NCBI GenBank assembly: GCA_964588305.1
Contig: CAZPOP010000001.1
Span: 56,736-120,735, forward strand
DNA from: an uncultured Ignavibacteria bacterium
Lineage (GTDB): Bacteria; Zixibacteria; MSB-5A5; SM1-73
Length of the DNA stretch: 64,000 nucleotides
Reading direction: 5' to 3'
Shown: positions 19,968-50,572 of the stretch, piece by piece
How positions within the stretch are numbered: the first letter of the stretch is position 1
Layout: every line of letters starts with the position of its first letter
Notes under the pieces: generated by a model
What the model was told of the DNA's origin: nothing
Seen by the model: the letters and a program-made list of their open reading frames with translations, nothing else
The model's database searches: none
Position numbers and translations under genes: made by a program

Positions 19968-21479
19968 ATGGATAGAAAGCATTTACCTTTCTGGCTTGCC
20001 ACCATTTCCCTTTTTGCAGCACTGATCTTACCCACCCTGCTGAAAGACGGGATGTTCATGGATGGGCTTTTTTACAGTGTCCTTTCCAGAAATTTGGCTG
20101 AAGGTAGGGGCACCTTCTGGAACCCACATCTGACCGAAACGTTATACAATACATTCCACGAACATCCACCGTTGGTTTTTGGGATACAGTCTTTATTTTT
20201 CAGGATATTTGGTGATCACCTGCTGGTGGAGAGATTCTATTCGCTTCTTACAGCAATAATAACAGGCTGTTTTATCACGTTAATATGGAAGGAGATTTTC
20301 AAACAAAAGACTGAATTGGCAAGTTTGAGCTGGCTGCCTTTTCTTTTCTGGATTATTATTCCCCTGACCCATTGGTCATACAGGAACAACATGCTTGAAA
20401 ACACCATGGGCGTTTTCACCATTGTTGCCGTGTTTGTGTTTATCAAAGGGTTAAGTTCAAACAGGAAAATCTTTCTTCATTTGACTCTCGCTGGTTTCCT
20501 TATTCTCTTGGGGTTCTTGTGTAAGGGGTTTGTGGCATTGTTTCCGCTTGCAGTTGTGGCACTTTATTGGTTGATATTCAAAAACACCTCCTTTAGCAAA
20601 ATGACAGTTTATTCACTGATGCTGTGCTTTGTGGTCTTGTTGTTGTTATCGCTCATATTGCTTGACGCCGAGGCCCACCAAAGCTTATTGAAGTATCTTG
20701 ATGGACAAGTTGTGCGAAGCCTTAAAGGCGAAAGAGGACTCGTCGGTGAGAGGTATCATATCATCCAAACGTTGTTTACGGAGTTGCTCCCGGTGATGAT
20801 CTTGACAACAATAATGTTGATTCCCGCCAAGTTGAGAAAAATCAATATGAGTGGAATCGGAATTCACAAAAAATGGATGCTGTTGTTATTCGGCATCGGC
20901 GTTTCGGCTTCATTCCCAATAATGATAAGCGCTAAACAGTTAGGCTTTTATGCAGTACCCTCATTTCCGTATTTTGCAATTGGCTTCGCAATAATTGCGG
21001 CACCGGATCTGAATGAATTACTACAACGGGCAAACCCTGAAAACAAATGGTTCAGGATGTGTATGTGGGCATCTTCAATTCTTTTGATTTTTGTTATTGC
21101 TTTTTCAATGCTGCAAGTAGGAAAAATCGGCAGGGATCATGATAAACTCAGAGATATATATACGATTGGCAGAATCCTCCCCAGAGACTCAATTATCAGT
21201 ATTTGTCCTTCCATGCGAGGTGATTGGTCCTTACACGGCTACTTCGCACGTTATTTCAACATCAGTCTGGACCACACCGAGAAGGAATACAAGTATTATT
21301 TGACCGATAAAAGTTGTGATGGCTCTCTTTCAGAGGAATATAGCAAAATTGAACTGCCGACTAATATTTATAATTTATATCGAATCAAGGAGATAAAGAC
21401 AGGATTTTCAAGGCACTCCAAGCAATACAGCGTGAGCGCCGATTGCACTGGATCACACTTTGCTGCTTGCTCTCGGTGA
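19968..21479 (+). CDS. GT-C glycosyltransferase (family 39 / ArnT / PMT_2-like)
   Basis: 503 aa polytopic protein. The N-terminal loop is MDGLFYSVLSRNLAEGRGTFWNPHL...HEHPPL. Pairing with gtrA is typical. Confidence 0.65.
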   Translation: MDRKHLPFWLATISLFAALILPTLLKDGMFMDGLFYSVLSRNLAEGRGTFWNPHLTETLYNTFHEHPPLVFGIQSLFFRIFGDHLLVERFYSLLTAIITGCFITLIWKEIFKQKTELASLSWLPFLFWIIIPLTHWSYRNNMLENTMGVFTIVAVFVFIKGLSSNRKIFLHLTLAGFLILLGFLCKGFVALFPLAVVALYWLIFKNTSFSKMTVYSLMLCFVVLLLLSLILLDAEAHQSLLKYLDGQVVRSLKGERGLVGERYHIIQTLFTELLPVMILTTIMLIPAKLRKINMSGIGIHKKWMLLLFGIGVSASFPIMISAKQLGFYAVPSFPYFAIGFAIIAAPDLNELLQRANPENKWFRMCMWASSILLIFVIAFSMLQVGKIGRDHDKLRDIYTIGRILPRDSIISICPSMRGDWSLHGYFARYFNISLDHTEKEYKYYLTDKSCDGSLSEEYSKIELPTNIYNLYRIKEIKTGFSRHSKQYSVSADCTGSHFAACSR

Positions 21480-21563
21480 GGAACCTTAGCAGGGAGCGAT
21501 GCGCGGGAGTGTCAGGCCTGAAGGATTCTTGATGAAGCCATACTCGCAAGACGTCTCTATCAG

Positions 21564-21581
21564 GTTCACCTAAAGGTGAAC
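21564..21581. repeat. Hairpin GTTCACCtaaaGGTGAAC followed by ACTCC (family also at 43274 and 53314)
   Basis: Lies between convergent GT39 and osmC genes. The weak T-run (AGTTTTCT) makes it a candidate bidirectional terminator. Confidence 0.4.
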
Positions 21582-21612
21582 ACTCCAGTTTTCTATCTCT
21601 GCATCAAAATCG

Positions 21613-22029
21613 CTATTTATTGTTGATATTCCAATTATGGGTAATTTCAGCTTTTTCTCTCAACATGGCAGTGACCGAGCAATACTTTTCCTGAGACAGC
21701 TCGATTGCTTTTTTCACATTCTCTTCTTTGATGTCTCTTCCGACAAAATCATAATGGATGTTTATTTTGGTGAATATCTTGGGATGCTCCGGCGCCCGTT
21801 CGGAATCGATCTTGACGGTCATGCTTTCTAAATCGGTCCTCATCTTTTTTAGAATGGATACCACGTCCATGGCGGTGCAGCCGCCTAACGAGACCATCAG
21901 AAGCTCCATGGGCGCGGGTCCCTTGTCCTCGCCTCCGACTTCCGGTTTAGCATCCATCAGGACCGAATGCCCGGATTCGGTTTTTGCCTCAAATACCATT
22001 TTTCCCTTCCAGGTGAATTCGGTCAGCAT
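21613..22029 (-). CDS. OsmC/Ohr-family peroxiredoxin-like protein
   Basis: 138 aa. GGCTAMDV and CSVTAML are conserved Cys motifs of OsmC. Confidence 0.8.
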   Translation of the reverse strand: MLTEFTWKGKMVFEAKTESGHSVLMDAKPEVGGEDKGPAPMELLMVSLGGCTAMDVVSILKKMRTDLESMTVKIDSERAPEHPKIFTKINIHYDFVGRDIKEENVKKAIELSQEKYCSVTAMLREKAEITHNWNINNK

Positions 22030-35979: not shown

Positions 35980-37371
35980 TCACGAAATCCCCGTACACCT
36001 AAATGCCTCCCTTACCGTCTTCACCCCGGCCAGCTTGATGTCGAATCGTTGATTCAAGGATTTCAGGTTACCTTGCGGGATGATACAGTTCTCAAAACCC
36101 AATTTTTCCGCCTCCTTTATCCTCCTTTCCATCTGGTTTACCGCACGCACCTCCCCTCCCAATCCCACTTCTCCGATTATAGCAGATTTATTATCTGCCG
36201 GGACGTCTTTGAAACTGGAGGCGATTGCCACCATAGTCCCCAAATCCACCGCTGGTTCCTCGGTCCTGACCCCCCCCGCCACGTTGACGAATACGTCGAA
36301 TGCTCCCAGGCCTATGTCCGCCCTCTTCTCCAGAATGGCCAAAAGCAAAGCCAATCTCTTGTAATCGATTCCCGAGCATACCCTCTGGGGCATGCCATAA
36401 CTGGAGGGAGAGACCAAAGCCTGCAATTCCAGAAGCAGAGGTCTGGTTCCCTCCAGAGTACATACCACCACAGAGCCGGAGATGTTCCTGGCCCTTTCGG
36501 AGAGGAACAAAAGCGAAGGATTCTCCACCTGACGAAGTCCCTTCTCCTGCATCTGAAATATACCGATTTCATTGGTGGAACCAAAACGATTCTTGACCGT
36601 TCTCAAAATTCGATAGATATGATTTTTTTCGCCTTCAAAATAGAGAACCGTATCCACCATGTGTTCTAATACTTTCGGCCCGGCGATGGAACCATCCTTG
36701 GTCACGTGCCCGACCAGAAACACCGAACTGCCGGTCTCCTTGGCGAAATTAATAAGACTGTGTGCGCATTCCCTGATCTGGCTTACGCTTCCCGGAGTGC
36801 TTTCCAGGTTTTGAGTGTAAGTAGTCTGGATCGAATCGATCACCACGATGAAGGGAACCTCCTGCTTTAAGACCTCCAGGATCAAATCAAGATTGGTTTC
36901 GGTCAAAATCTCGATTTTATCCGGGAGGATTCCTAGCCTTTCCGCCCGGAGTTTAATCTGCTTCAAAGACTCCTCTCCGGTAATATACAACACTTTGCCA
37001 CAATTCGAAGCATAAACCTTGTGGTTCATATCGGAGGTGATCTTTTCTGATATTTGCAGAAGCAGAGTCGATTTGCCGATCCCCGGATCTCCACCTACCA
37101 GAACCACTGATCCCCTGACGATCCCGCCTCCCACCACCCGGTCGAACTCCTTTAGACCAGTTTTGATTCTGTCTTCATCCCGAACGTCCACCTCGCCCAA
37201 GGGAATGGGAGCGATTTTTCGCCTTGCACCCGCTCTCTTGTGCCCCCTGACCCGCTCCTCGATCATGCTGTTCCAGGTACCGCAATCCGGACATTTCCCC
37301 ACCCAGCGCAGGGAGTGATGGCCGCAGCTCTGGCAGATATAAACTGTTTTGACTTTATTTGGGTTAAGCAT
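35980..37371 (-). CDS. radA: DNA repair protein RadA/Sms
   Basis: N-terminal C4 zinc finger (CQSCGHH...CPDCGTW), Walker A GDPGIGKST, Lon-like C-domain. Confidence 0.9.
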   Translation of the reverse strand: MLNPNKVKTVYICQSCGHHSLRWVGKCPDCGTWNSMIEERVRGHKRAGARRKIAPIPLGEVDVRDEDRIKTGLKEFDRVVGGGIVRGSVVLVGGDPGIGKSTLLLQISEKITSDMNHKVYASNCGKVLYITGEESLKQIKLRAERLGILPDKIEILTETNLDLILEVLKQEVPFIVVIDSIQTTYTQNLESTPGSVSQIRECAHSLINFAKETGSSVFLVGHVTKDGSIAGPKVLEHMVDTVLYFEGEKNHIYRILRTVKNRFGSTNEIGIFQMQEKGLRQVENPSLLFLSERARNISGSVVVCTLEGTRPLLLELQALVSPSSYGMPQRVCSGIDYKRLALLLAILEKRADIGLGAFDVFVNVAGGVRTEEPAVDLGTMVAIASSFKDVPADNKSAIIGEVGLGGEVRAVNQMERRIKEAEKLGFENCIIPQGNLKSLNQRFDIKLAGVKTVREAFRCTGIS

Positions 37372-37380
37372 AGGTCTTTT

Positions 37381-37415
37381 TTGTCCGTTGTCCGCCGTCC
37401 GCAGTCCGCCGTCTG
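37381..37415. repeat. Left inverted repeat flanking the four-helix-bundle gene
   Basis: TTGTCCGTTGTCCGCCGTCCGCAGTCCGCCGTCTG. Its partner lies at 37799..37828. Confidence 0.6.
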
Positions 37416-37422
37416 GCAGAAT

Positions 37423-37776
37423 CTACTTAAGCTTCTTCCTGAGTGCCTGCAACTTGGCGAACATTTTCTCACCGAAAACATAAGCGTCGTTAAAAACTCT
37501 CTCCTCAACATATTTCCTTCGCTTTGCCAGATGCAAACAACCGATAACCTCTATCAGAGACCTAATGGCGATGCCGATAAAGCGGTGAAACTCCATATTT
37601 GATTGACTGGTGGAACCTTCCGCGATATTTAAGGAACTAGAAGTGGCGGCTCTTAGCATTTGAGACGTTAAGTTATACTGCTCTTTTGCAGGTAATTTCT
37701 TGCTGATTTCGTATACCTTATCCGAATACTCTAGTGACAACTGCCACACTTCCAATTTTTCGAATTTAAAAGCCAC
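37423..37776 (-). CDS. Four-helix-bundle protein (23S rRNA intervening-sequence protein family)
   Basis: LEVWQ...A...NIAEG is the signature of the TIGR02436-type family. GTG start. Confidence 0.75.
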   Translation of the reverse strand: MAFKFEKLEVWQLSLEYSDKVYEISKKLPAKEQYNLTSQMLRAATSSSLNIAEGSTSQSNMEFHRFIGIAIRSLIEVIGCLHLAKRRKYVEERVFNDAYVFGEKMFAKLQALRKKLK

Positions 37777-37798
37777 GTCGATTCTCTTATCAGTCTTA

Positions 37799-37828
37799 CT
37801 GCGGACGGCCGACGGCGGACAACCGACG
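37799..37828. repeat. Right inverted repeat flanking the four-helix-bundle gene
   Basis: CTGCGGACGGCCGACGGCGGACAACCGACG. Its reverse complement shares GTTGTCCGCCGTC and CGTCCGCAG with the left copy. Confidence 0.6.
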
Positions 37829-37831
37829 TCT

Positions 37832-38578
37832 TCAGACTGCCGTTATAGGTCCCTGCCCGCTTCCTTCGATGAACTGCTTGACCACAGGATGATCGGTATC
37901 TTTCGTCTCATCCGGCGTTCCCACAAAGATGATCTTTCCTTCATATAGCATGGCGATGCGATCGGCTATTTTGTAAGCTGAGGTCATGTCGTGGGTGACG
38001 GCGATGGAAGTGATGGAGAGCGCATCTCGGCAGCTGACGATGAGCTCGTTTATCACGTCTGCCATGATCGGGTCCACGCCGGTGGTGGGCTCGTCGTAGA
38101 GAACGTACTCCGGATCCATGGCGATAGCTCGGGCCAGCCCCACCCTCTTTCTCATACCTCCTGAAAGCTCGGCCGGCTTTTTCTCTTCGATCCCGGAGAG
38201 CCCCACCAACTTCAAAGTCTTGGTGACTTTCTCTTTTATTTCCACTTCCGGCATTTTGGTGTGTTCCCTTAGGCCCAATCCCACGTTTTCATCCACGGTC
38301 ATGGAATCGAACAGGGCCGAGCCTTGAAAAAGCATTCCGAATTTCTGCCTCATTTGGTTCAATTGCCCATCGTTATACGCAGTTATATCTTCGCCGTCCA
38401 CCAGAACCTGTCCCCGGTCGGGTTTTAGAAGTCCAATGATGTGTTTCAGAAGGACGCTTTTCCCACAGCCACTTCTTCCTATGATCACCGTGGTTTCGCC
38501 CTTTTGGATATCCAAATCCACGCCTCGCAACACCTGATTCTCTCCGAAGTCCTTGTGTACGTCCTTGATTTCTATCAT
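37832..38578 (-). CDS. mlaF: ABC transporter ATP-binding protein, MlaF/Ttg2A-like
   Basis: GRSGCGKS Walker [15 protein letters not shown] signature, about 248 aa. The matching MlaE permease lies 3.8 kb upstream. Confidence 0.7.
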
Positions 38579-38596
38579 GCTCTTTTTCTAAAACTT

Positions 38597-39952
38597 CTAA
38601 AGGGTTTCACTTTCTATCGCCTCTTCCACTTTTCTTTTCGCCTCTTCCAATAATTCTTTCGCTTTTCTTCTTGCTTCATGAGATTGACGGACGAGTAAGG
38701 CGATTTCTTTCTGGATCTTATCAGGCATTATGGGAATTGTAATTCTCTTGAGAGACGCCTTCGGAACGGCAGTCAAAATCGTGCCTGCACATTGTTTTTT
38801 GAGTTGCGCTTGGAGAACTATACTTTTTGATAAAACCAATAACACCTCGGGAAGGATTTTTATATACCTGAACTGGAAAAAACCAGTAGAGGCTAAGGCT
38901 CCTTCATACGCTTGACCGACCAAGGCTACTTTCTCTAAAGAACCTTCCACGCTTGAAACTATTATGTCATTCTTTCTTAAAACCCTCCTCGCTCTGCTTG
39001 GGGCCTCTTCACCTTTTATCTCACTTACGCTGTTTACGACTCCAATAGAAGGGTCTATGTCAGCCAATTCGACATAAGAAAAGGTTTTATGGGGGTGTCT
39101 CATGGGATCAAAATCAGGCTTGATACTCTTAACATAATTTAACAACCACGAATGACCATTTTGATAATCCAATATGCATTTTATCACTTCTTCGTAAGCA
39201 GGCTGGAAATACTCAGCATCTGCACGATGAACTGCAAATGTTTTGGAAAGATTAGCAGTATAAGAAAGTTCGTATTTTGCCTTAAAATTGGTTAATCCTA
39301 ATTCTTCTAAAAGCAGGTTTTCAGCTTGCGAAAATAAATTACGCGAATCTTCAAGCAATATAGTGGCCTGTTTAGTTGTTTTCCCTATCTGCTCAGCATT
39401 CTTTATTTCGGGGATTAATAACTCTTCGATTTTTTCGATAAACAGATTCAATTGAACATTACCAGTTGACTCTCTGAATGCCTGGAATCTCCCGTATTTT
39501 GAATTGAGAAATGTCGATACATAAAATGGATCAAACTTCTTATTCTTTAACCGCACAATTCCAACATGCCTATCTGCATTAATTGGTAACATGCACGCTG
39601 AAACAACAGCAGTGTTGCCAATGGTGCCTACTGATGAAATAATTATGTCTCCGACACTTAATGAAGTTCTAAGATTTCTTTGGTGTTGCTCAGCAGAGAT
39701 GCGAGTATTTGCCGATAAGTCAAAATCATTATCTTGAACTGATTGAGCAGAGATTATTCTTATTTTGCTATTAGGATCATAGTCAATGGATGAATGAATC
39801 CCATCCGTGATTAAGGCAAAGCGTTTTAATGGTTTACTACTGATTTTGAGAAGTCTCTTTTCTAATTTTAGATATAATGGCTGATAATATTCAGCATCCA
39901 ACCTTTTGGTTCCTTTAAGATCAGATATATTAGATACACTTACCACAGCCAT
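38597..39952 (-). CDS. Restriction-modification specificity (S) subunit with two target-recognition domains
   Basis: 451 aa. Two TRD halves separated and terminated by conserved coiled-coil spacers (HsdS/BcgIB-like). Immediately downstream of a methylase gene. Confidence 0.75.
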   Translation of the reverse strand: MAVVSVSNISDLKGTKRLDAEYYQPLYLKLEKRLLKISSKPLKRFALITDGIHSSIDYDPNSKIRIISAQSVQDNDFDLSANTRISAEQHQRNLRTSLSVGDIIISSVGTIGNTAVVSACMLPINADRHVGIVRLKNKKFDPFYVSTFLNSKYGRFQAFRESTGNVQLNLFIEKIEELLIPEIKNAEQIGKTTKQATILLEDSRNLFSQAENLLLEELGLTNFKAKYELSYTANLSKTFAVHRADAEYFQPAYEEVIKCILDYQNGHSWLLNYVKSIKPDFDPMRHPHKTFSYVELADIDPSIGVVNSVSEIKGEEAPSRARRVLRKNDIIVSSVEGSLEKVALVGQAYEGALASTGFFQFRYIKILPEVLLVLSKSIVLQAQLKKQCAGTILTAVPKASLKRITIPIMPDKIQKEIALLVRQSHEARRKAKELLEEAKRKVEEAIESETL

Positions 39953-39955
39953 ATC

Positions 39956-42358
39956 TTAACCGCGCCAAAAATCGAAACTTTGCTCTTTGGCAAATTTAAC
40001 AAAAGCTTCTGCTATCTCATCCAAATCATGGTTTATTTCTGGGTGTTCATCTTTTCCGAGTACAAGCTCACCATTTGGGCCTTTTTTATATCTATATTCG
40101 CCACTCTCGTCTTTGACTGGTTTCTGATTTACAGCAAAGAATATAGGATAATCCATCTCTTTTATAACTTTGCCGTCAAGCCAGAATTTCTTGAACTGCT
40201 CGGTTATCTTTTCTTCATTCAAAACTAGATAAATTTGCCCTCCCAATACTCGCGCTGAGACTTCACGGCGAAGTTTTTTAAGTTTAATGTTTAAGATTTT
40301 GATTTCTTTGTTCAACTCTCTTTTTCTGTGATGTTGTGTGGTGCTGTCTAATTGTTTCTGTTTTTCTTCTAATATTTCTTGTAGTTCTTGTATCTCGTCA
40401 ATTACGGCCTTAATCGGCTTTGTCGCTTTTGTTTCCTTTTCTTCAGACTGTTCACCTTCTTCCGTCTCCTCTTCCTCCAATTCTTCTACAGTCCCAAAAT
40501 AAGTTTCAATGAAAGATTTTAGTTCCTCGGTGAGACCCTCTTCATTTGTGGGTTTAGCCCAGTTCACCCCCTTGTATTTGTCTTTCAGGTTTGCAATAAA
40601 ACCTTCCCATTCTCCCTCATACTTCGCTTTAGTTTCCTGAATTGTTTGCTTTTCTTTGTCTGTGTATTTCTGTAAGAATAAGACGCTGGTTTTTGTTCCA
40701 GTATGGGGTTTAAAGGAATTTCCATGCAAACCAACCACTGCTAAAATTCGAGCTTGGTCGATAACAAACCTACGAATATATTCAGCATTTGTGTTATTTA
40801 ATATGCCTTGGGGCAGAACGATAGCGATTCTACCGCCCTGTCGTATAAATTGGAGGCAGCGATTTAGAAAGAGAATATGTCTCCCTATTTTTTTCACTAA
40901 TTTACCATTTTTCTCAGCTAACTCATACAACCTTAAGATATCCTTTTCCTTGACAGTTCCCGCGAAAGGCGGATTAGTCATGAGAACATCAAAATCGAAG
41001 TATAGGAACTTGTCTTGATTTTCTCTGTCCTTTTCCGGCTCACCAAATCTGAAAAGTCTGGATCTCAATCCCGCCTTAGTTTCATCGTTCCAAGTTTGCG
41101 GTGCTAACGAGTTATCTTTGTACACATGAGATTTACCGTCTCCCACTATCAGATTAATAGCTTTTGCTATTTTTACTGCCTTTTTAGCAAAATCAATCCC
41201 CACAATATTGTTTTGGGCAAAATTCTTAGCGGCTGGCGGAAGCTCCTTGCCGGTAATAGCACCGCCAGCAACCCGCATAACAGAATGCAAAAGGAAACCA
41301 GCTGAGCCACATGCAGGGTCTATCACAAATTCGTCTGGCTTGGGATTGAGCATCTCCACAACCATATCTTCAACCGGTCTCGGTGTGAAGAATTGCCCTT
41401 CCTTTTTCTTAGATACTTGTGGAATTAGGTATTCAAACGCCTCATCAATTATTCGAAGATTTGAATTGAACAACTTTATCTTTTCCAGAAAGGAGACACA
41501 AACCTTTAAGTGTTCATCTCTGAGTTCTATTTTGTCTGTAGGTTCAAACACTCCGCTCCATTGTCTTTTTGCTCCTTCGAGTAGATTGCTTATCTCTCTT
41601 TTTATTTTCGCAGCACTTCTGTCACCTACATAAAATCCTAATTGGTAATTTTTGTCGTTTATTCCCTTTGTTTCATCATATAGTTTTGCATATATTAACT
41701 TAAAAATCTCTTCGAAGGGATCCACGCCAGCATTGCCTAGAACAAGTTCCTCGAGATCCAGGAGTATTTTCTTGAGTGTTGTTTTGCCTTGTCGCAATTC
41801 ATCATATTCCTCTAACCAACCTATGGTCCATCTTTCTGTGAGAATATCTATAAGTGTTTCTGTGACTCTTGGAATCCGTGGGATTTCTACAAAAATATTT
41901 GGCTTCTCGCGATGGAGCCGTATTATCTCATTCCCGTTAGACCATACTCCTATGGGGGCTCCCTCTGCGTTACAATAACTCTTCAGTTGTTCTAAACCGT
42001 CTGTTCTTTTTGGTCTTTTTACTTCGAATATTATATATGGATGTGTTAAGTCGTCATGTAAAACGAGAATATCGGCCAGTCCAGAATCCCGAGACCCAAA
42101 ATAAACTACTCTTTCAACGTCAATTCGATTCAGTGGGTAATGGTATTCGTGGAAAAGTCTTTTAATCCAAAGTTGCCTGACAATCTCTTCTGGTTTTGCC
42201 GGTTTATATTTATTTTTTACTTGACACTTGATAGCAAATTTTCCGTCCCTCTTTATTATTAGTCCCTCTATTTCCTTTATCTCTCTTGTAGTAAAAAGAG
42301 ACAAACCATGCTTAACATCAGGGGTGGAGAAAATCGTTTGGATCTTTCCGTTCGGCAT
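39956..42358 (-). CDS. N6-adenine DNA methyltransferase (gamma-class, HsdM/BcgIA-like) fused to an N-terminal PD-(D/E)xK nuclease-like domain
   Basis: FxGxG-type motif DPACGSAGFL, then NPPFAG. The N-terminal ~170 aa contain ADILVLHDD...IIFEVKRPK (D...E.K). The C-terminus is an acidic coiled-coil. The locus has no helicase/HsdR gene. Confidence 0.7.
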   Translation of the reverse strand: MPNGKIQTIFSTPDVKHGLSLFTTREIKEIEGLIIKRDGKFAIKCQVKNKYKPAKPEEIVRQLWIKRLFHEYHYPLNRIDVERVVYFGSRDSGLADILVLHDDLTHPYIIFEVKRPKRTDGLEQLKSYCNAEGAPIGVWSNGNEIIRLHREKPNIFVEIPRIPRVTETLIDILTERWTIGWLEEYDELRQGKTTLKKILLDLEELVLGNAGVDPFEEIFKLIYAKLYDETKGINDKNYQLGFYVGDRSAAKIKREISNLLEGAKRQWSGVFEPTDKIELRDEHLKVCVSFLEKIKLFNSNLRIIDEAFEYLIPQVSKKKEGQFFTPRPVEDMVVEMLNPKPDEFVIDPACGSAGFLLHSVMRVAGGAITGKELPPAAKNFAQNNIVGIDFAKKAVKIAKAINLIVGDGKSHVYKDNSLAPQTWNDETKAGLRSRLFRFGEPEKDRENQDKFLYFDFDVLMTNPPFAGTVKEKDILRLYELAEKNGKLVKKIGRHILFLNRCLQFIRQGGRIAIVLPQGILNNTNAEYIRRFVIDQARILAVVGLHGNSFKPHTGTKTSVLFLQKYTDKEKQTIQETKAKYEGEWEGFIANLKDKYKGVNWAKPTNEEGLTEELKSFIETYFGTVEELEEEETEEGEQSEEKETKATKPIKAVIDEIQELQEILEEKQKQLDSTTQHHRKRELNKEIKILNIKLKKLRREVSARVLGGQIYLVLNEEKITEQFKKFWLDGKVIKEMDYPIFFAVNQKPVKDESGEYRYKKGPNGELVLGKDEHPEINHDLDEIAEAFVKFAKEQSFDFWRG

Positions 42359-42411
42359 TTTTCACCCGATCAATCAATATTTTGATTAATTTGATTGTGC
42401 ATAATAAGTCT

Positions 42412-43164
42412 TTATCCAAAGAGAATCGAAGCCACCACGTAATCTGCTATGAGTATCAGAACCGATGCTACAACCACGGCCTTGGTAGCCGATCTTCCCA
42501 CGCCTTCCGCTCCCCCTGTGGTTCTAAATCCCTGATAACAGCCAATGATTGAGATTATGCCGCCGAAGACGAAGGCCTTCAAAAGTCCGGAGGTCAAATC
42601 CATCATTTTGAAAAAACTTTTTAAGCCATTGAAAAAGGTATACGGCGAGACGTGCAGGGAAACTGTCGATACCCCCAGTCCTCCCAGTATGGCGATGGCA
42701 TCCGCAAAGACGGTGAGTACCGGAAGCATAATCAACCCAGCCACGAATCGGGGTACCACCAGGTATTCCACCGGATCCAAGGCTAAAGTCTCCAGGGCAT
42801 CGATCTGTTCGGTTACTTTCATGGTACCCAATTCAGCCGCTATCGCAGCCCCTACCCTTCCCGCCACCACCAGAGCGGTCAACACCGGCGCCAGCTCGAT
42901 CATCACCGCCTTGCCTACAGCCGTACCTATATACCTCATGGGGACGTAATCCGATATTTGGTAGACTGCTTGAACCGCGGTTACGGCTCCGGTGAAAATG
43001 GAGACCAAAACAACCAGAGGAAGAGAATTTACGCCCATCACCAGCATCTGCTCGGTGGTGAGCCGGGACCTGGTGAAAACGCTGGGCAGACCCAGAAAGG
43101 TTCTTCTGATCAGTATTGCCAGTCCGCCCACGTTCTCAACAAACGAAAGGGCCTTCCTTCCCAC
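42412..43164 (-). CDS. mlaE: ABC transporter permease, MlaE family
   Basis: 250 aa polytopic protein. The N-terminus is VGGLAILIRRTFLGLPSVF...TTEQMLVMGVNSLPLV. Confidence 0.75.
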   Translation of the reverse strand: MGRKALSFVENVGGLAILIRRTFLGLPSVFTRSRLTTEQMLVMGVNSLPLVVLVSIFTGAVTAVQAVYQISDYVPMRYIGTAVGKAVMIELAPVLTALVVAGRVGAAIAAELGTMKVTEQIDALETLALDPVEYLVVPRFVAGLIMLPVLTVFADAIAILGGLGVSTVSLHVSPYTFFNGLKSFFKMMDLTSGLLKAFVFGGIISIIGCYQGFRTTGGAEGVGRSATKAVVVASVLILIADYVVASILFG

Positions 43165-43273
43165 GAAGGTGAAAGCGTTGTCTTGAGTGGTGAAAAGCCT
43201 CGTCTTATTCTCCTTTACAAGGTTTAAGGTGAAGGGTGTAAGGTTAAGTCCCCACCCTTCTCGCCTTTGCCTG

Positions 43274-43319
43274 GCTCACCTATTTATGGTGAGCTTATCG
43301 AACGGAAGGTGAACACTCC
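43274..43319. repeat. Hairpin GCTCACCtatttatGGTGAGC followed by GGTGAACACTCC motif
   Basis: Lies between mlaE start and dnaB stop. Shares the GGTGAACACTCC tail with the 21564 element. Confidence 0.4.
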
Positions 43320-43631
43320 GAATTCCTTCTCTCCCAGCAACGCGACGAATTTACCTGTCCACTCGTATAGGCATACAGTCGTGCCTACAAAGAAGGTTTC
43401 TGTTTTCATCGGTTAGCGGTGTAGGTTTAGATTCGCTTCACTCACTACAAGTCGACTACGTATCGTATCCCGTCTGTGGGTTTCGTCTACCGTATTTCGG
43501 TCGATAGACGTGTGACGAGGACTCTTCAGACGATACGTGACCGAGGCCGTAACCTCCCAAAACGAAAACCCAAGATGCAACAGTTATTTAATTGTCAAAG
43601 CAGCAGACACCTACTTAAACCTCTCGTCTTC

Positions 43632-45011
43632 TTAGAACGGTACTTCCTTATGGATAAACTCCATATTTTCAAACCTGGCGTAGTCCTTTATGAAGGTTAA
43701 TCTGAGGTCTCCGGTGGGACCGTTGCGGTGTTTGCTCACAATTATCTCGGCCACCCCTTCGGCCGGGGCTCCGTCTCTGAACTTTTCTATGCCGTAGAAT
43801 TCGGGGCGATAGACGAAAACCACCACGTCCGCATCCTGTTCGATGGCTCCGGATTCACGCAAATCGGCAAGCATGGGCCTTTTATCTCCGCCTCGATCCT
43901 CCACCTTTCTAGAAAGCTGTGACACCGCAATTACCGGAACTTCGAGCTCCTTGGCCAATCCCTTCAGTGATCGGGAGATCATGGAAATCTCCTGTTGTCT
44001 GGACTCCGATCTCTTGGGTCCCTGCATCAGTTGCAGGTAATCCACGATGACCAATCCCACGTTATGTTGAGCCTTGAGCCTTCTGGCTTTTGCCCGCATC
44101 TGGAGGATTCCCAGATTGGGGGTGTCGTCTATGAATATCTTGGACTCGGCCAAAGGCCCCACCGCCACTGCCAGGTTACTGTATTCATGGTCGCTGATTC
44201 TTCCGGTTCTCATCTTATGGGTGGAAAAGCGCGCCCGGCTGCACAGCATCCTCTGTGCCACCTGGCTTTTTGCCATCTCCAGGCTGAAAACTCCCACCGG
44301 GACTTTCTCTTCGATAGCTAAGTGCTCGGCAACGGATAAACAGAAGGCGGTTTTTCCCATGGAGGGACGGCTGGCCACCACGATGAGATCCGAATTTTGC
44401 AGTCCTCCGGTCAAGGTATCCAATTCGACGAAACCGGTGGGGAGCCCGGTGACCATCCCCCCTTTCTTCTGGTATTCCTCTATGGCTTCAAAAGTGTGCG
44501 GAAGAAGCTCGCCGACCGAGACAAATCCCTCCTTTATTCTTTTCTCGGAGATGCTGAAAATCACCTGTTCTGCCCGATCCAGAAGATCGTCCACCTCCAG
44601 GCTGGCGTCGTAACATTGCGAGACTATCTGGGTGGAGGTGTCGATCAACTTTCGCAGGGTGGCTTTTTCTAAGACGATGTTGGCATGATACTCTATGTTG
44701 GCGGTGGTGGCGATTCTTTCGGTCAACTCCAGAAGGTATACCCTCCCCCCCACGTTATCCAGTTCTTTTCTTCTGGCTAATTCATCCGAAACCGTGATGA
44801 TGTCTACCGGCTGGTTCTTATCATACAGATCCACCACAGCAGAGAATATCTTCTGATGGTCGTCCCGATAAAAGGAATCCTTCTCGATTATCTCCACCGC
44901 CTTTCCGATAGCTTCTTTATCCAGAAGCATTGCGCCCAAGACCGCCTGTTCTACTTCGACGGACTGCGGAGGGATTCTCTCATGTGGTGATGTGTCTTTT
45001 CGGTCTACCAT
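43632..45011 (-). CDS. dnaB: Replicative DNA helicase DnaB
   Basis: N-terminal domain (PPQSVEVEQAVLGAMLLD) and RecA-like domain with GSRPSMGKTAF Walker A. Confidence 0.9.
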   Translation of the reverse strand: MVDRKDTSPHERIPPQSVEVEQAVLGAMLLDKEAIGKAVEIIEKDSFYRDDHQKIFSAVVDLYDKNQPVDIITVSDELARRKELDNVGGRVYLLELTERIATTANIEYHANIVLEKATLRKLIDTSTQIVSQCYDASLEVDDLLDRAEQVIFSISEKRIKEGFVSVGELLPHTFEAIEEYQKKGGMVTGLPTGFVELDTLTGGLQNSDLIVVASRPSMGKTAFCLSVAEHLAIEEKVPVGVFSLEMAKSQVAQRMLCSRARFSTHKMRTGRISDHEYSNLAVAVGPLAESKIFIDDTPNLGILQMRAKARRLKAQHNVGLVIVDYLQLMQGPKRSESRQQEISMISRSLKGLAKELEVPVIAVSQLSRKVEDRGGDKRPMLADLRESGAIEQDADVVVFVYRPEFYGIEKFRDGAPAEGVAEIIVSKHRNGPTGDLRLTFIKDYARFENMEFIHKEVPF

Positions 45012-45041
45012 GTAGGCCTCATATCAATTGAGAATGACAAG

Positions 45042-46310
45042 CTAATTCAGGTTTGGGAAATGAAAGGCAATCACTGCTAGTTTGACCTCTCGACTTTCGT
45101 CACCTGGCAGGTGAAAACGAAAATTGAACCATGACTCTTCGGTTTTGCCGGAAAGATCGAGATAGTCCTCATGTTCTTTCGTACGGTTTTCTACAACTTC
45201 GAGCACTGACGAGAAACCTTTGTTTCGCACAAAGAGAATCACAGCTGCTTTCGAGTCTCGCCAAGTCAAATAACCTAGCAGTTGAGAAATTGCTTTCATA
45301 TATTCTTTTATGCCCTCCCAGAACTTGCATTCTGCCACAAAGACATTTTTGTTCTCATGACGGATCAAAATGTCAGTTTTTCCGCTCTTGTTGAATGTCT
45401 CACCAGTCGCCGCTCCTTCAAACCAGGGCCCAAGTTGCATAAGAAAATGATCCCGTAAAGCCTCTTCGTTCTTTTGATCATAGGTGGCCGGCAGGCGCTC
45501 TAAAGCTTTGCCAAAATCATAAATAATCTTAAGAATATCGTTGTAGACTTGGATGTCGAGGGTCGGCTCTGGTGAAAAACCCCCTGATTGCGTGCTGGGT
45601 TTCTTTATTAGTTGTCTCTTCGCTGGTGCAGCGGGAATCGCAAACGTCTCGGGAACATCCTTACGTTTCCGTACTGGAACACCGAGACTGGCCACGAAAT
45701 TCCTCTGTTTCAGGATGTTTTGTTTGCGCCCTTGGAATAGGTTGCTGACCAAGGTCCGGAGTTGCGAATTATAGGAGCTGACCTGTCCCGCTACGCTTGC
45801 GTGTTGCTGTTGAATCAGCCTTATTCTCTCATCGGCTTCCCTTTTTATTTTCTCCGCATCCCCATATAAGTCTGGAATCTTAAAGCAAATGCACCCTTCT
45901 TCTATCATTACCTCATAGGTCATCATAGCAAAGGCGCTTGGCCGACATCGCAGGAGATCAACGTCTCCGCTGAACGGCAAATGGTACTTTATGACCTGTC
46001 GTGGATGTGTGCCGCTTCTGTTAACGAAATGGACTTCTCGTGGAAAGCGCGCTTTAGGTATTTGCTCCTCAGCTGTCGTTACATACTTCCCGGCGAAGTC
46101 GATTTCTAGGTTGTCAACTCTGAATTCTTCTCTCAAATACTCGATATACTGGTTCTCGTTCACGTTCAAAATATAGTCCTCATCTTCCGATTTTATTTTT
46201 CCTCGGAGTCTTTCAGTGTTTGCATCTAAGTAGTCACTTAGTTGAATGTTCCAAAAGATACTGAAGCCTCCCGTATTCCTAAAGGACATGCTCCTCTCCC
46301 TCCCCTTCAC
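45042..46310 (-). CDS. Hypothetical protein with C-terminal PD-(D/E)xK nuclease-like core
   Basis: GKTDILIRHENKNVFVAECKFWEG is a canonical D-x(n)-E-x-K motif. The N-terminal ~300 aa is unrecognised. Single gene between dnaB and udg. Confidence 0.4.
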   Translation of the reverse strand: MKGRERSMSFRNTGGFSIFWNIQLSDYLDANTERLRGKIKSEDEDYILNVNENQYIEYLREEFRVDNLEIDFAGKYVTTAEEQIPKARFPREVHFVNRSGTHPRQVIKYHLPFSGDVDLLRCRPSAFAMMTYEVMIEEGCICFKIPDLYGDAEKIKREADERIRLIQQQHASVAGQVSSYNSQLRTLVSNLFQGRKQNILKQRNFVASLGVPVRKRKDVPETFAIPAAPAKRQLIKKPSTQSGGFSPEPTLDIQVYNDILKIIYDFGKALERLPATYDQKNEEALRDHFLMQLGPWFEGAATGETFNKSGKTDILIRHENKNVFVAECKFWEGIKEYMKAISQLLGYLTWRDSKAAVILFVRNKGFSSVLEVVENRTKEHEDYLDLSGKTEESWFNFRFHLPGDESREVKLAVIAFHFPNLN

Positions 46311-47014
46311 TGTGTGCCCAATCTCTCATACTGTCGTCTTAGCAGTTTCACATCCTCCCAGGTAGGCCTCTTGTACTGGGGGTATCTCAAGAGTGCCGCC
46401 GGGTGATAGGTAACCAGGAATTTCGTCCCGTGATAATCGTGAATCTTACCTCTCAATTGGCCCAAAGGAGCTTTTGTTTTCAGAAGTGCCTGCGCGGCTA
46501 TCCTTCCCAATGCGCATATTATCTTGGGTTGGATGATTCTGATCTGCTCCAACAGATGTGGCTCGCACATCTGGACCTCATCCGGCAAGGGATCCCGATT
46601 CTCCGGAGGACGGCATTTCAGGATATTGGCGATATAGACCTCGTTCCTGCTGAACTTTATCGCCGCCAAAATCTTGTCTAAGAGGTGTCCTGCTCTCCCT
46701 ACAAAAGGCTCTCCCTGCAAGTCCTCTTCTCTTCCCGGAGCCTCTCCTACGAACATGACTTCAGCATTCTGGTTTCCCGCTCCAAAAACGAGGTTGGTTC
46801 TGCTCTGGTGGAGATTGCATTTCTTACAGTCCTTTATCTCTTGATGGAGATCAATCAATGTCTTAACCGAGGTATTGAGTTTTTTCACACTTGATTTCCT
46901 GCCCCTTGGCTGGGCATAGACTTCATCGAACCCGAGCTCTACCTGTTGCTTCAAGAAGTTTCTTGCCAGGGCAACGGCCTGAAGCATTTTCTCGTAGCGA
47001 TCATCCGGTCTCAT
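46307..47014 (-). CDS. Uracil-DNA glycosylase, family 4 (Fe-S type)
   Basis: CKKCNL...GEAPGREED...GRAGHLL motifs. Confidence 0.85.
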
Positions 47015-47059
47015 CTTTTTCGGATTTGAGGCGTAAGATTTCTGTAAAATCCTTACGGA

Positions 47060-48271
47060 TCAACTCCCTTTCTTTTTTCTTAGAAGCAGCTTAACTCTGT
47101 CTACTATCTTGGCTGCCACCTCTTTTTTGGAGAGCAAGGGAAGCTTCTCCGTTCTTCCACGTCTGTCAATCAGCGTGACCTGATTGGTAGCCACTTCGAA
47201 GCCTGCGCCGGAGACTTTGGGATTGTTGACCACGATCAGATCCAGATTTTTTTCGGCCATCTTCTTTTTTGCATTTTTTATATCGTCCTCAGTCTCAAGA
47301 GAGAAGCCGACTAGAATTTTGTCTTTTTTTCTCTTGCCCATTTCTTTCAAAATGTCTACAGTGGGCTTAAGTTTCAAGAGGATCTCCTGCTCTCCCTTTT
47401 TGATTTTCTCTTTTGAGATTAGGCTGGGAGAAAAATCGGAGACCGCCGCGGCCATGATCAAGGCATCCGCTCTTCTGAAAGCGGCTCTGACCGCACCAAG
47501 CATTTCTTTGGCGGTTTTAACCTGGACGAAACTCAAGCCGGAGGGACGGGGCAAGCTTGAAGGTCCGCTGATCAAGGTCACCTTTGCCCCTCTTTGAAAA
47601 GCCTCACAGGCTATGGCATATCCCATCTTTCCGCTGGAGCGGTTGGAGAGAAATCTTACCGGGTCCCAGGGTTCTTCGGTTCTGCTTGCGGTCACCAAAA
47701 TCGACCTTCCTTTAAGATCTTTTTCTCTGGTCAACAGCTCCACCGCCTCAGCCACGATGGTCTCTGGCTTGGCCAATCTTCCTTTCGCCACAATGCCGGA
47801 AGCCAACTCTCCCACCTCCGGTTCGATGAATTTGTATCCTAATTTCTCCAAATAGGAGAGATTTTCCTGGAAGATTGCATTCTCATACATGTTGACGTTC
47901 ATGGCCGGAGCGATTAAAACAGGTGCTTTGGAGGAGATGACGATGGTGGTGAGTATATCGTCCGCCATGCCCGATCTTATTTTGCCGACGACATTGGCTG
48001 TGGCCGGTGCGATCAGGATCAAATCGGCCCAGCCGGCTAAATCCACATGTCTTATCCCCACGAATCTTCTCTTGGGAAACATTTCGGTGACCACCTCGTT
48101 TTCCGAGAGGGTCTCTAAAGTTAAGGGGGTGATGAATTTCTTGGCATTCTCGGTCATCACCACCACAACCTCGGCGCCGAGCTTTTTCAATCTCCTGGTG
48201 ATGTCGCAGGCCTTGTAAGCGGCGATGCCGCCGGTGATTCCCAGGATTATTTTCTTGTTTTCAAGTGTCAT
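47060..48271 (-). CDS. coaBC: Bifunctional phosphopantothenoylcysteine decarboxylase / phosphopantothenate-cysteine ligase
   Basis: Flavoprotein N-domain (ILGITGGIAAYKA) plus DFP C-domain. ATG 48271 is preferred. The ORF extends to 48295. Confidence 0.9.
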   Translation of the reverse strand: MTLENKKIILGITGGIAAYKACDITRRLKKLGAEVVVVMTENAKKFITPLTLETLSENEVVTEMFPKRRFVGIRHVDLAGWADLILIAPATANVVGKIRSGMADDILTTIVISSKAPVLIAPAMNVNMYENAIFQENLSYLEKLGYKFIEPEVGELASGIVAKGRLAKPETIVAEAVELLTREKDLKGRSILVTASRTEEPWDPVRFLSNRSSGKMGYAIACEAFQRGAKVTLISGPSSLPRPSGLSFVQVKTAKEMLGAVRAAFRRADALIMAAAVSDFSPSLISKEKIKKGEQEILLKLKPTVDILKEMGKRKKDKILVGFSLETEDDIKNAKKKMAEKNLDLIVVNNPKVSGAGFEVATNQVTLIDRRGRTEKLPLLSKKEVAAKIVDRVKLLLRKKKGS

Positions 48272-48339
48272 TATCTTAAGAAAACCCCGAGGCATAAAGG
48301 CTCGGCTGCGCGATAATATGAGGAAAACATGATGACCGT

Positions 48340-48442: not shown

Positions 48443-50572
48443 CTATTTCAAAAGCAGCATTTTCTTCGTCTCCGAGACCACCGTTTCATTTCTTTCCACG
48501 GTAAGCTTATAGAAGTAGATGCCGCTTGCGACACGCTCTCCGGCGTTCCCCTTTCCATCCCACGTAATCGTATAAGCACTTGAGGGCTGGAATCCATGTA
48601 CAAGTGTCCTGATTTCCTGACCCAACAGGTTATATATCTTGAGCGTAACCTGGCTGCGCTTGCTTAGCGCGTACTCGATAGTCGTCTGAGGATTGAACGG
48701 ATTGGGAAAATTCTGCGCCAGATCGAAATCTTTGGGAGAGCCGACGAATTCGTCGTCATCCTCTTCTACCGACGTACAACCGCCGTTTGTGGTGTGCAGG
48801 ATTGTGCCATACTCGCCTACGGCCCAACCGGTGCTGGTATCCGTAAAACAGACGCTGTAAAGCCAATTCGAAGTTCCGGAGCTCTGCGCGTCCCAGTTGC
48901 TTCCACCATCAGTGGTGTGTATGATCGTGCCGGAGGCTCCTACCGCCCAACCCTTACCGACATCGATGAAACAGACGCTTTCGAGGTAGTTGAAAGTTCC
49001 AGAATCCTGAACGGCCCAGTTGCCTCCTCCATCGGCGGTGTGTAAGATTATACCGTCCCCACCCACTATCCACCCAGTGTCGGCATCGGTGAAGTAGACG
49101 CTATTGAGCCGCAGGGAAGTTCCAGAACTTTGAGGACTCCAGTTACCCCCAGCATTGATGGTGTGCAAGATTGTGCCGGAATCTCCTGAAACCCAGCCGA
49201 CATCGGCGTCTATGAAATACACGCAATAAAGCCACTGGGAAGTTCCGGAATTTTGGGCATCCCAACTGCTTCCCCCGTCGGTGGTCTGTAAGATTACGCC
49301 GGAATCTCCTACTGCCCAGCCAGTATCGCCGTCCGAGAAATATACACCGTAAAAATGATCTGAAGTTCCAGGAGTTTGAGCATCCCAGTGGCCACCTTGA
49401 TCGGTGGTGCGTAAGATCGTGCTGTCCAAACCTGCCGCCCAACCAGTGCTGTCGTCTGCAAAATGGATACTGAAAAGGTGACTAAAAGTTCCAGAGCTAT
49501 CGGCATGCCAGCTGCTGCCTTTATCGGTGGTGTGTAAGATCGTGCCAAAATCCCCTGCTGCCCAGCCAGCGCTGTCATCTGTGAAACAAACACTCCTCAG
49601 GTGATTTGGGGTCCCGGAAGTTTGACGATTCCAGTGGTCCCCTTCGTCTGCGGTCTTTAAGATGGTACCGCCGTATCCTACCGTCCAGCCCGTAGTGGCG
49701 TCCGCGAAATAGACGCCATTCAGACCACTTGACGCTCCGGAAGTCTGAGCATCCCAGTCGGCACCGCCGTTGGTGGTGTGCAAGATCGTACCGTACTCTC
49801 CTACTGCCCAGCCGGCATCGGCATCTACAAAATAGACGCCGAAAAGCGGCTGTAAAGTTTCGGAAGTCTGAGGACTCCAGTTGCCTCCGCTATTGGTGGT
49901 GTAAAGGATCGTGCCTGCCTCCCCTACTGCCCAGCCAGCACTGGCGTCCGCAAAATAGACGCCGTTAAGCCACTCCAGAATTCCAGAAGTCTGAGCATCC
50001 CAGTTGCTTCCCCCATTGGCGGTGTGTAGGATCGTCCCTGAATCTCCTACTGCCCAGCCGGTATCGGCATCCACAAAATAGACACCGTAAAACGATTGGT
50101 TAGTTTCCGATGTCTGAGGATTCCACTTGCTTCCACCGTTTGTGGTGTGCACGATTACGCCACTCTGTCCGACTGCCCAGCCGTTATCGGCATCCGTAAA
50201 ATAGACGCTCTTGAGGCGATTGGGAGTCTCGGAATCCTGAGGATCCCAATTGTCCCCACCGTCGGTGGTGTGCAGTATCGTGCCATGATCACCTACTATC
50301 CACCCGGTATCGGCATTCATGAAATGGACACCGAAAAGGTGACTTGACGTTCCGGAACTCTCAGGACTCCAGCTGCTTCCGCCGTCTGTGGTGTATAAGA
50401 TCGTCCCAACATCTCCTACCGCCCAGCCAGTATCGTCGTCTGTGAAAAAAACACTCCAAACGGTATTACCCTGAAGCAGAGGATTCTGCCAGTGCCAGCC
50501 TTGCTGGGCATAGCTCGTGGCTGCCACAAGCGTCAATCCCAAAATTATCAAGATTCTCTTGAACAAAACCAC
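48443..50572 (-). CDS. Secreted Ycf48/BNR-like repeat beta-propeller protein with T9SS C-terminal sorting domain
   Basis: Signal peptide. About 14 repeats of GTILHTTDGGxxWxxQxSGT...L..V.F.D...GWAVG. C-terminal FPNPFNPQTTIEY...LKIYNLLGQEI...GIYFYKL is the T9SS CTD. Confidence 0.75.
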   Translation of the reverse strand: MVLFKRILIILGLTLVAATSYAQQGWHWQNPLLQGNTVWSVFFTDDDTGWAVGDVGTILYTTDGGSSWSPESSGTSSHLFGVHFMNADTGWIVGDHGTILHTTDGGDNWDPQDSETPNRLKSVYFTDADNGWAVGQSGVIVHTTNGGSKWNPQTSETNQSFYGVYFVDADTGWAVGDSGTILHTANGGSNWDAQTSGILEWLNGVYFADASAGWAVGEAGTILYTTNSGGNWSPQTSETLQPLFGVYFVDADAGWAVGEYGTILHTTNGGADWDAQTSGASSGLNGVYFADATTGWTVGYGGTILKTADEGDHWNRQTSGTPNHLRSVCFTDDSAGWAAGDFGTILHTTDKGSSWHADSSGTFSHLFSIHFADDSTGWAAGLDSTILRTTDQGGHWDAQTPGTSDHFYGVYFSDGDTGWAVGDSGVILQTTDGGSSWDAQNSGTSQWLYCVYFIDADVGWVSGDSGTILHTINAGGNWSPQSSGTSLRLNSVYFTDADTGWIVGGDGIILHTADGGGNWAVQDSGTFNYLESVCFIDVGKGWAVGASGTIIHTTDGGSNWDAQSSGTSNWLYSVCFTDTSTGWAVGEYGTILHTTNGGCTSVEEDDDEFVGSPKDFDLAQNFPNPFNPQTTIEYALSKRSQVTLKIYNLLGQEIRTLVHGFQPSSAYTITWDGKGNAGERVASGIYFYKLTVERNETVVSETKKMLLLK
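49567..50572. repeat. About 1-kb near-identical direct repeat (copy 1) covering the N-terminal third of the first T9SS propeller gene
   Basis: Identical 83-aa antisense ORFs at 50096..50347 and 52504..52755 demonstrate at least 252 nt of perfect identity. Protein N-termini are near-identical for ~335 aa. Confidence 0.8.

Follow-up and report, generated by a model that had tools for sequence, protein, structure and literature searches.

The closest described counterpart of the gene analysed here is PDC-S54, a catalogued, experimentally uncharacterised family of defence candidates represented in PADLOC by the HMM PDLC05036. The PDC candidates were derived by guilt-by-embedding, which picks out genes lying inside BREX, DISARM and Type I restriction-modification (R-M) systems (10.1101/2024.01.29.577857, Payne et al.), and according to a 2026 survey, validation is still pending for most of them (PMC12988326). 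In our literature search, neither PDC-S54 nor its HMM accession nor any of several accessions of members turned up in a paper or supplement, and no published phage-resistance test of any member was recovered. PDC-S54 is a very large family, yet one with no Pfam family, solved structure or published functional test. The whole protein described below is matched by more than 5,200 clusters (90% identity) and its N-terminal module by 3,156 (50% identity). Members with a named source include sequences of Ignavibacteriae, Caldilineaceae, Terriglobia and Shewanella, and plasmid-borne ones are known from Rhizobium, Thauera, Streptomyces, Nostoc, Paludisphaera, Spiroplasma and the archaeon Haloplanus. 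The spread of the family is patchy over bacterial phyla (including Mollicutes plasmids) and haloarchaea, at about 30-50% identity; phage records account for two members only.

The gene between udg and dnaB

The stretch of DNA analysed here (hereafter, the window) comprises 64,000 nucleotides from an uncultured Ignavibacteria bacterium. On its minus strand, an uninterrupted open reading frame at 45042..46310 encodes 422 aa, as the sequence-only reading had claimed, when read from a GTG at 46310, and its placement between udg and dnaB, likewise claimed there, is confirmed by the PF03167 and PF03796 matches of the flanking genes. The domains were delimited on an AlphaFold2 model built from 91 homologues (mean pLDDT 85.8), with secondary structure assigned by DSSP and residues given in the numbering of the 422-aa form. 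The features are as follows.

46307..47014, minus strand: udg, the upstream neighbour, encoding a family-4-type UDG of the uracil-DNA glycosylase superfamily (PF03167, 5.4e-41)
46290..46310, minus strand: alternative 7-codon 5' extension to GTG 46310, holding a purine-rich Shine-Dalgarno-like stretch
45042..46289, minus strand: PDC-S54 family CDS, 415 aa from ATG 46289, with the stop codon TAG at 45042-45044
45861..46268, minus strand: N-terminal alpha/beta domain, residues 15-150; three helices, then four long strands
45687..45857, minus strand: single long helix, residues 152-208 (DSSP H152-208, pLDDT 95-98)
45555..45686, minus strand: conserved linker predicted to be disordered, residues 209-252 (pLDDT 35-58)
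45051..45554, minus strand: C-terminal PD-(D/E)xK (restriction-endonuclease-fold) nuclease domain, residues 253-420
45324..45374, minus strand: catalytic core D313 ... E327-C-K329 (TDILIRHENKNVFVAECK), codons checked
43632..45011, minus strand: dnaB, the downstream neighbour, encoding the replicative helicase (PF03796, 2.6e-106; PF00772, 6e-35)

The gene most likely starts at ATG 46289 rather than at GTG 46310, because the identical database protein (P0001) and close homologues are called as 415 aa from the ATG corresponding to 46289, a GGAGG at 46299-46303 lies 9 nt upstream of this codon, and residues 1-12 of the 422-aa form are unconserved and modelled with pLDDT < 50. The GTG lies inside the udg coding sequence and is not accompanied by a GGAGG-like motif, and in the 91-homologue alignment, family conservation starts only near residue 19 of the 422-aa form. 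The 46290..46310 extension is, then, probably untranslated, and the 4-nt overlap with udg, which had been read from the sequence alone as a sign of operon coupling, hinges on the GTG start and is probably a product of picking the longest open reading frame; with the ATG start, it becomes a 17-nt gap after the udg stop, and the gene ends 30 nt ahead of the dnaB start. Comparison with close homologues yields dN/dS of 0.12-0.135, indicative of purifying selection; these values, together with the abundance of matching database clusters, mark the gene as real and functional.

The protein matches PDC-S54 over its full length (E = 2.5e-146, 486 bits), with residues 17-419 aligned to positions 6-407 of the 410 positions of the HMM, and we assign the predicted product to this family as a further member. 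Scans of the protein against Pfam, NCBIfam and PHROGs returned nothing above threshold, the sub-threshold matches being DUF234 at 0.06 and a PHROG of unknown function at 2e-5 on the C-terminal domain; sequence and profile searches against the PDB returned coiled-coil proteins only, which we judged to be noise, and a Foldseek search against viral structures gave no match at E <= 0.001. For the N-terminal part, there was no match to any family in Pfam or NCBIfam or to any sequence in the PDB, in agreement with the sequence-only reading, to which this region resembled nothing recognisable.

Domain architecture and predicted nuclease site

The N-terminal alpha/beta domain carries a conserved DYILNVNE motif, and we propose that it is a sensor module. 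The single long helix that follows is proposed to be a coiled-coil, dimerisation or signal-transmitting element, the coiled-coil role being suggested because the PDB profile matches are to coiled-coil proteins only. The linker has the consensus LASLGVPIKKR...TFAIPTP...PEPTLD across the 91 homologues; L209 and P238 are invariant, and at least 90% of the homologues share G210, V211, P212, T222, P226, P247, P249 and L251.

The C-terminal domain displays the alpha-beta-beta-beta-alpha-beta core and the E...D...ExK arrangement of PD-(D/E)xK nucleases, and the best structural matches of the model are Type II restriction enzymes and McrC. The nuclease-core motif claimed from the sequence alone, GKTDILIRHENKNVFVAECKFWEG, is indeed present (residues 310-333, window 45312-45383). 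D313 and E327 do not vary among the 91 aligned homologues, nor does the helix glutamate E283 upstream of the catalytic core (codon 45462-45464), and K329 is found in at least 90%, so that the predicted active site is complete, intact and restriction-enzyme-like. The overall layout previously claimed, an uncharacterised N-terminal domain followed by a C-terminal PD-(D/E)xK domain, is borne out by the AlphaFold2 model. The extra C-terminal beta-hairpins of the nuclease domain (residues 380-417, about 45060-45173) contain invariant H380, H400, D404 and H417, which could form a second metal- or ligand-binding site.

Among the described systems, PDC-S54 itself is matched over the full length, with the same single-gene organisation and nothing differing in sequence. 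With Shedu (SduA), the protein shares a general sensor-plus-nuclease design, namely, a single protein with a variable or uncharacterised N-terminal region and a C-terminal PD-(D/E)xK domain. The proposed resemblance to the Shedu/DUF4263 type does not, however, extend to membership: the protein falls outside the DUF4263 (PF14082) and PADLOC SduA models, and DUF4263, NucS and Mrr_cat are each matched by 0 of the 91 homologues. BamHI, OkrAI, BstYI and BglII show only 10-17% identity to the protein and lack its N-terminal extension of roughly 250 residues. Furthermore, the site of BamHI is ExE, whereas that of the window protein is ExK. A BamHI-like Type II R-M assignment was rejected given that no cognate methyltransferase is adjacent and the neighbours are udg and dnaB. 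The ligand-activated defence nucleases NucC, Cap4 and Can2/Card1 differ from the protein, which lacks SAVED and CARF domains and is not accompanied by cyclase or CRISPR genes in the window; its proposed sensor is unrelated to those of these nucleases and is fused in cis. The sole recurrent, weak Pfam match is to DUF234, the PD-(D/E)xK-type C-terminal domain of archaeal and bacterial ATPases, which is hit by 27 of the 91 homologues (best 9.5e-5); in the window protein, this match covers the catalytic core (residues 296-332) at 14.2 bits against a threshold of 22.5, and there is no ATPase domain.

Two further assignments were considered and rejected. The Type IV enzymes Mrr and McrBC do not fit, with no Mrr_cat or McrC match, GTPase/AAA partner or modified-DNA reader domain detected. 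The same holds for housekeeping nucleases (RecB-family, NucS/EndoMS and Holliday-junction resolvases), for which we found no family match and no conserved presence or synteny in relatives; clear homology to such a nuclease, combined with synteny in all relatives, was what the sequence-only reading had named as evidence against its proposal, and neither was observed.

Exchange of effector domains on the N-terminal module

Among the best 150 profile matches of the N-module, we examined the 55 proteins of full-length size (at least 380 aa), of which 50 contain a nuclease domain. In P0148 and P0155, the N-module and helix are followed instead by a TIR domain (TIR_2, PF13676; 1.6e-20 and 5e-27, respectively), in P0228, by an adenylate/guanylate cyclase domain (Guanylate_cyc, 3e-11), and in P0217 and P0174, by C-termini without assignment; another TIR fusion is P0271. 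Relatives with such swapped effectors are apparently rare; when the TIR and cyclase variants were themselves used to seed a profile search, at least 6 proteins were recovered. In PADLOC, the TIR and cyclase fusions match only the N-terminal half of the PDC-S54 model, in which the N-module corresponds to HMM positions about 4-232, and the TIRs resemble those of known defence systems. The leading LASLGVP part of the linker is kept, in variable form, in both types of fusion.

The converse case is found on the conjugative IncHI2 plasmid pEC_CBJ3C of E. coli (L177; NZ_ON960341.1, 4467-8892), where only the C-terminal half of PDC-S54 is present: a 344-aa protein with an unrelated N-terminus matches HMM positions 246-407 (9e-38), and the next gene encodes a DEAD/DEAH helicase of 1020 aa that weakly resembles PbeA, REase_I and HamB. 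This pair may represent an unnamed two-gene nuclease-helicase system.

A fixed N-terminal module combined with interchangeable nuclease, TIR or cyclase effectors is the pattern of many immune sensor-effector proteins. Given that these three effectors swap on the N-module, the pattern argues for a module that senses or assembles and against one that reads DNA sequence. On balance, we consider it more likely than not that the product of the window gene is an immune nuclease of PDC-S54, directed against phages or mobile DNA and self-contained in a single polypeptide. In such a protein, the N-terminal alpha/beta domain would serve as the sensor and the C-terminal nuclease as the effector. Binding of a trigger by the N-terminal domain would alter the packing of the long helix and linker, this change would bring two or more effector domains together, and the assembled nuclease would cut DNA, either that of the invader or, in an abortive-infection mode, that of the host too. 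Activity depends on the formation of dimers or larger assemblies in BamHI-type nucleases, TIR NADases and class III cyclases alike, and because this holds for all three effector types found on the N-module, we infer, as the most economical mechanism, that the trigger would act via induced assembly.

The strongest alternative, a solitary classical restriction endonuclease such as a modification-dependent Type IV enzyme or an orphan Type II enzyme, strikes us as rather unlikely. In such an enzyme, the N-terminal domain would read DNA, whether a sequence or a modified base, and the BamHI-like domain would be a constitutive dimer, with no activation step. The structural affinity of the model to Type II restriction enzymes and McrC is compatible with this possibility, as are the frequent location of homologues directly after R-M operons, the lack of a cognate methyltransferase beside the gene in the window, which is expected of a Type IV enzyme, and the weak matches to HSDR_N and HSDR_N_2 in 2 of 91 family members. 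Nevertheless, no Mrr_cat, McrBC or similar family was matched, the N-terminal domain has no winged-helix, SRA or other known DNA-reader fold, and the fusion of the same module to TIR and cyclase domains fits the sensing of a signal better than recognition of a DNA target.

Other domain combinations were observed around the family. Some PDC-S54 proteins have DUF4926 as an N-terminal extension (P0101/P0116, 527 aa; L086 10001-11584). The same domain occurs nearby as a small stand-alone protein and within a 1501-aa protein with similarity to the Cap4 nuclease (L005 761-5266; L087 41-523), and AF2212-like genes lie beside DUF4926 proteins near PDC-S54 loci.

Genomic context and alternative roles

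Outside the clade of the window, several homologues adjoin Type I or Type III R-M operons or form their last gene, whereas the window gene is flanked by udg and dnaB instead. In a Terriglobia MAG (L088), the homologue directly follows the hsdR-hsdM-hsdS genes of a Type I R-M system, overlapping hsdS by 4 nt; on two Mb-scale contigs (L005 and L087), it comes immediately after Type III mod-res, and L087 also has CBASS-like genes (patatin and DncV-like) close by; and at L003, it comes after Mrr, AbiJ-N and HNH genes. Plasmid homologues lie near hsdS, toxin-antitoxin RelE/HigA, IS5, NACHT and PIN genes, and no defence neighbours were seen in Shewanella (L089) or at L086. An all-against-all comparison of two genes on either side in 80 metagenome loci revealed no recurrent partner gene, which is consistent with a single-gene system. 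When 139 neighbouring proteins were surveyed with PADLOC and Pfam, counting members per family rather than the fraction of defence genes, defence-type families (among them methyltransferases, a Type IIG enzyme, HamB, PDC-M23B, SIR2, Type ISP, BsuBI/PstI, STAND and integrases) proved to be scattered, with 2-3 members each, among metabolic and transport genes. The idea of a single-gene defence nuclease, put forward from the sequence alone, gains from both the full-length PDC-S54 match and the adjacency of homologues to R-M and other defence genes.

What weighs against it is the scattered picture of the census, the loci with no defence neighbours, the absence of a published phage-resistance test of any member and the setting of the window gene itself, which sits not in a defence island but in a housekeeping string, coaBC-udg-X-dnaB, and has been stable there. 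For comparison, we used the window's DnaB to retrieve 80 loci from related genomes; these take in L006, the nearest relative available (78% identity in DnaB), and L007, a Zixibacteria MAG. No homologue of the gene was found in any of the 80. By contrast, udg directly adjoins dnaB in about 35 of them, including L006 and L007, both of which have a contiguous coaBC-udg-dnaB-mlaE-mlaF block that in L006 runs on into radA. Because coaBC, udg and dnaB are contiguous in relatives and the gene is absent from all 80 loci, it must have been inserted into this conserved block of housekeeping genes. At 0.48, its GC3 is lower than the 0.58-0.63 of the adjacent genes. Thus, given the absence from the 80 DnaB loci, the deviating GC3 and the patchy distribution of the family, the gene is a horizontally mobile accessory gene.

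The insertion is, however, not recent. At least 4 related lineages keep the udg-X-dnaB position, the most divergent protein among them being 72% identical. Directly after udg lie three homologues from metagenomes (88%, 73% and 72% identical), and one of these loci (L173) also has dnaB directly downstream, with flanking-gene identities (udg 71%, dnaB 79%) similar to that of the gene itself. The position has, then, persisted while the proteins diverged by roughly 20-30%, and, because the flanks diverged to a similar extent and dN/dS is low, the gene is inherited vertically in a clade whose depth is close to that of the split from L006, where the gene is missing. Under the immune-nuclease reading, the gene would have been captured between udg and dnaB in this clade, probably co-transcribed, and then vertically inherited. 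A scan of the udg-gene-dnaB gaps for consensus promoters and terminators found no such sites in either short gap, with hits at background overall, and co-transcription with udg and dnaB is, we infer, plausible. The linkage to udg is a local historical accident or a clade-specific adaptation, not a property of the PDC-S54 family: outside the clade of the window, udg or dnaB is nearby in 0 of 89 homologue loci. The functional coupling to udg and DNA repair that the sequence-only reading had suggested is, accordingly, unlikely: the udg-X-dnaB arrangement is confined to one small clade, the gene is missing from all 80 DnaB loci, and these 89 homologue loci have neither udg nor dnaB nearby.

For the same reasons, we regard as quite improbable the possibility that the gene encodes a housekeeping or domesticated repair or replication nuclease that works with UDG and/or DnaB, for instance, on uracil/abasic intermediates or stalled forks. 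The preservation of the udg-X-dnaB order in at least 4 lineages with divergence like that of the flanks, the 17- and 30-nt spacing with no promoter or terminator signal between the genes and the strong purifying selection speak for such a role. However, the gene is absent from the equally related L006 as well as the other 79 DnaB loci, its GC3 is atypical, PDC-S54 also occurs on plasmids and beside R-M systems, the remaining homologue loci have neither udg nor dnaB nearby, and there is no similarity to RecB, NucS or resolvases beyond the common fold.

We searched for scars of the insertion and found no target-site duplication or inverted repeats flanking the gene. A 14/16 imperfect direct repeat, with one copy at the dnaB start (45005-45020) and the other inside the udg 3' end (46355-46370), is probably coincidental, about 0.4 such repeats being expected by chance by our own estimate. 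A selfish element, homing-endonuclease-like or addiction-type, inserted between conserved genes without benefit to the host would account for the clean one-gene insertion with no other cargo and for the patchy phyletic distribution, but is highly improbable in view of the lack of such flanking repeats above chance level, the lack of an antitoxin-like partner, the long vertical retention under strong purifying selection and the TIR and cyclase fusions, which are typical of immune sensors.

Several other features of the region were observed. In L006, the empty site is a 235-nt udg-dnaB spacer (7770-7995) with GC-rich hairpin-like palindromes, e.g., gtcgggttgcgatcccgcctttggcgggagagctacccgac, which are reminiscent of REP-type elements; the window lacks them. 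Comparison of window 35980-48295 with L006 5826-12745 and with L007 shows that synteny of the coaBC-udg-dnaB-mlaE-mlaF-radA block extends across this FCB-type lineage. In the window, a two-gene R-M-like cassette (38597-42358, minus strand) lies between mlaE (42412-43164) and an mlaF-like ABC ATPase gene (37832-38578), which are adjacent in L006 and L007. One gene of the cassette (39956-42358) encodes an 800-aa protein with an HSDR_N_2 nuclease-like domain and an N6_Mtase/Eco57I methyltransferase (PADLOC MTase_I, 3e-187), and the second, a 451-aa Methylase_S specificity protein; no separate HsdR gene was seen with the cassette. Its GC content is 38-39% and its GC3 0.33-0.36, compared with about 0.6 in the neighbours, so that the cassette looks like a recent horizontal insertion that split the mla operon. 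It lies 2.7 kb from the PDC-S54 gene, represents a separate insertion and holds the nearest methyltransferase; this genome has two independent defence-type insertions within 8 kb of the coaBC-udg-dnaB-mlaE-mlaF-radA block. At 48443-50572 on the minus strand, a 709-aa protein consists of many GWAVGDxGTILHTTDGGxxW repeats, BNR/Ycf48-like by eye, and its C-terminus, which resembles a type IX secretion sorting domain (FPNPFNPQTTIEY), suggests an FCB-group organism. The GC skew is positive from 1 to about 20 kb and negative from about 21 to 64 kb, with a cumulative peak near 20-21 kb, and the switch at about 20000-22000 may mark a change in gene orientation or a replication landmark.

A bolder extension of the immune-nuclease reading can be envisaged, in which the N-module is an undescribed sensor fold that drives nuclease, TIR and cyclase effectors by induced assembly, constituting a new class of single-chain abortive-infection proteins, and the gene has become fixed in the coaBC-udg-dnaB operon as a guard of the replication and repair machinery, firing, for example, on phage UDG inhibitors or DnaB hijackers, or has been domesticated for a replication-linked role. 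Taken as a whole, this scenario is a long shot.

The new elements of the present analysis are the domain map, the catalytic residues, the evidence of effector swapping and the clade-specific fixation in a replication/repair operon. For annotation of this genome, the gene should be labelled as a candidate defence nuclease (PDC-S54 family) rather than as a repair enzyme, and its start moved to ATG 46289. For the family at large, the domain map, the probable catalytic residues and the exchange of effectors make PDC-S54 a well-defined target for validation as a single-gene defence system.
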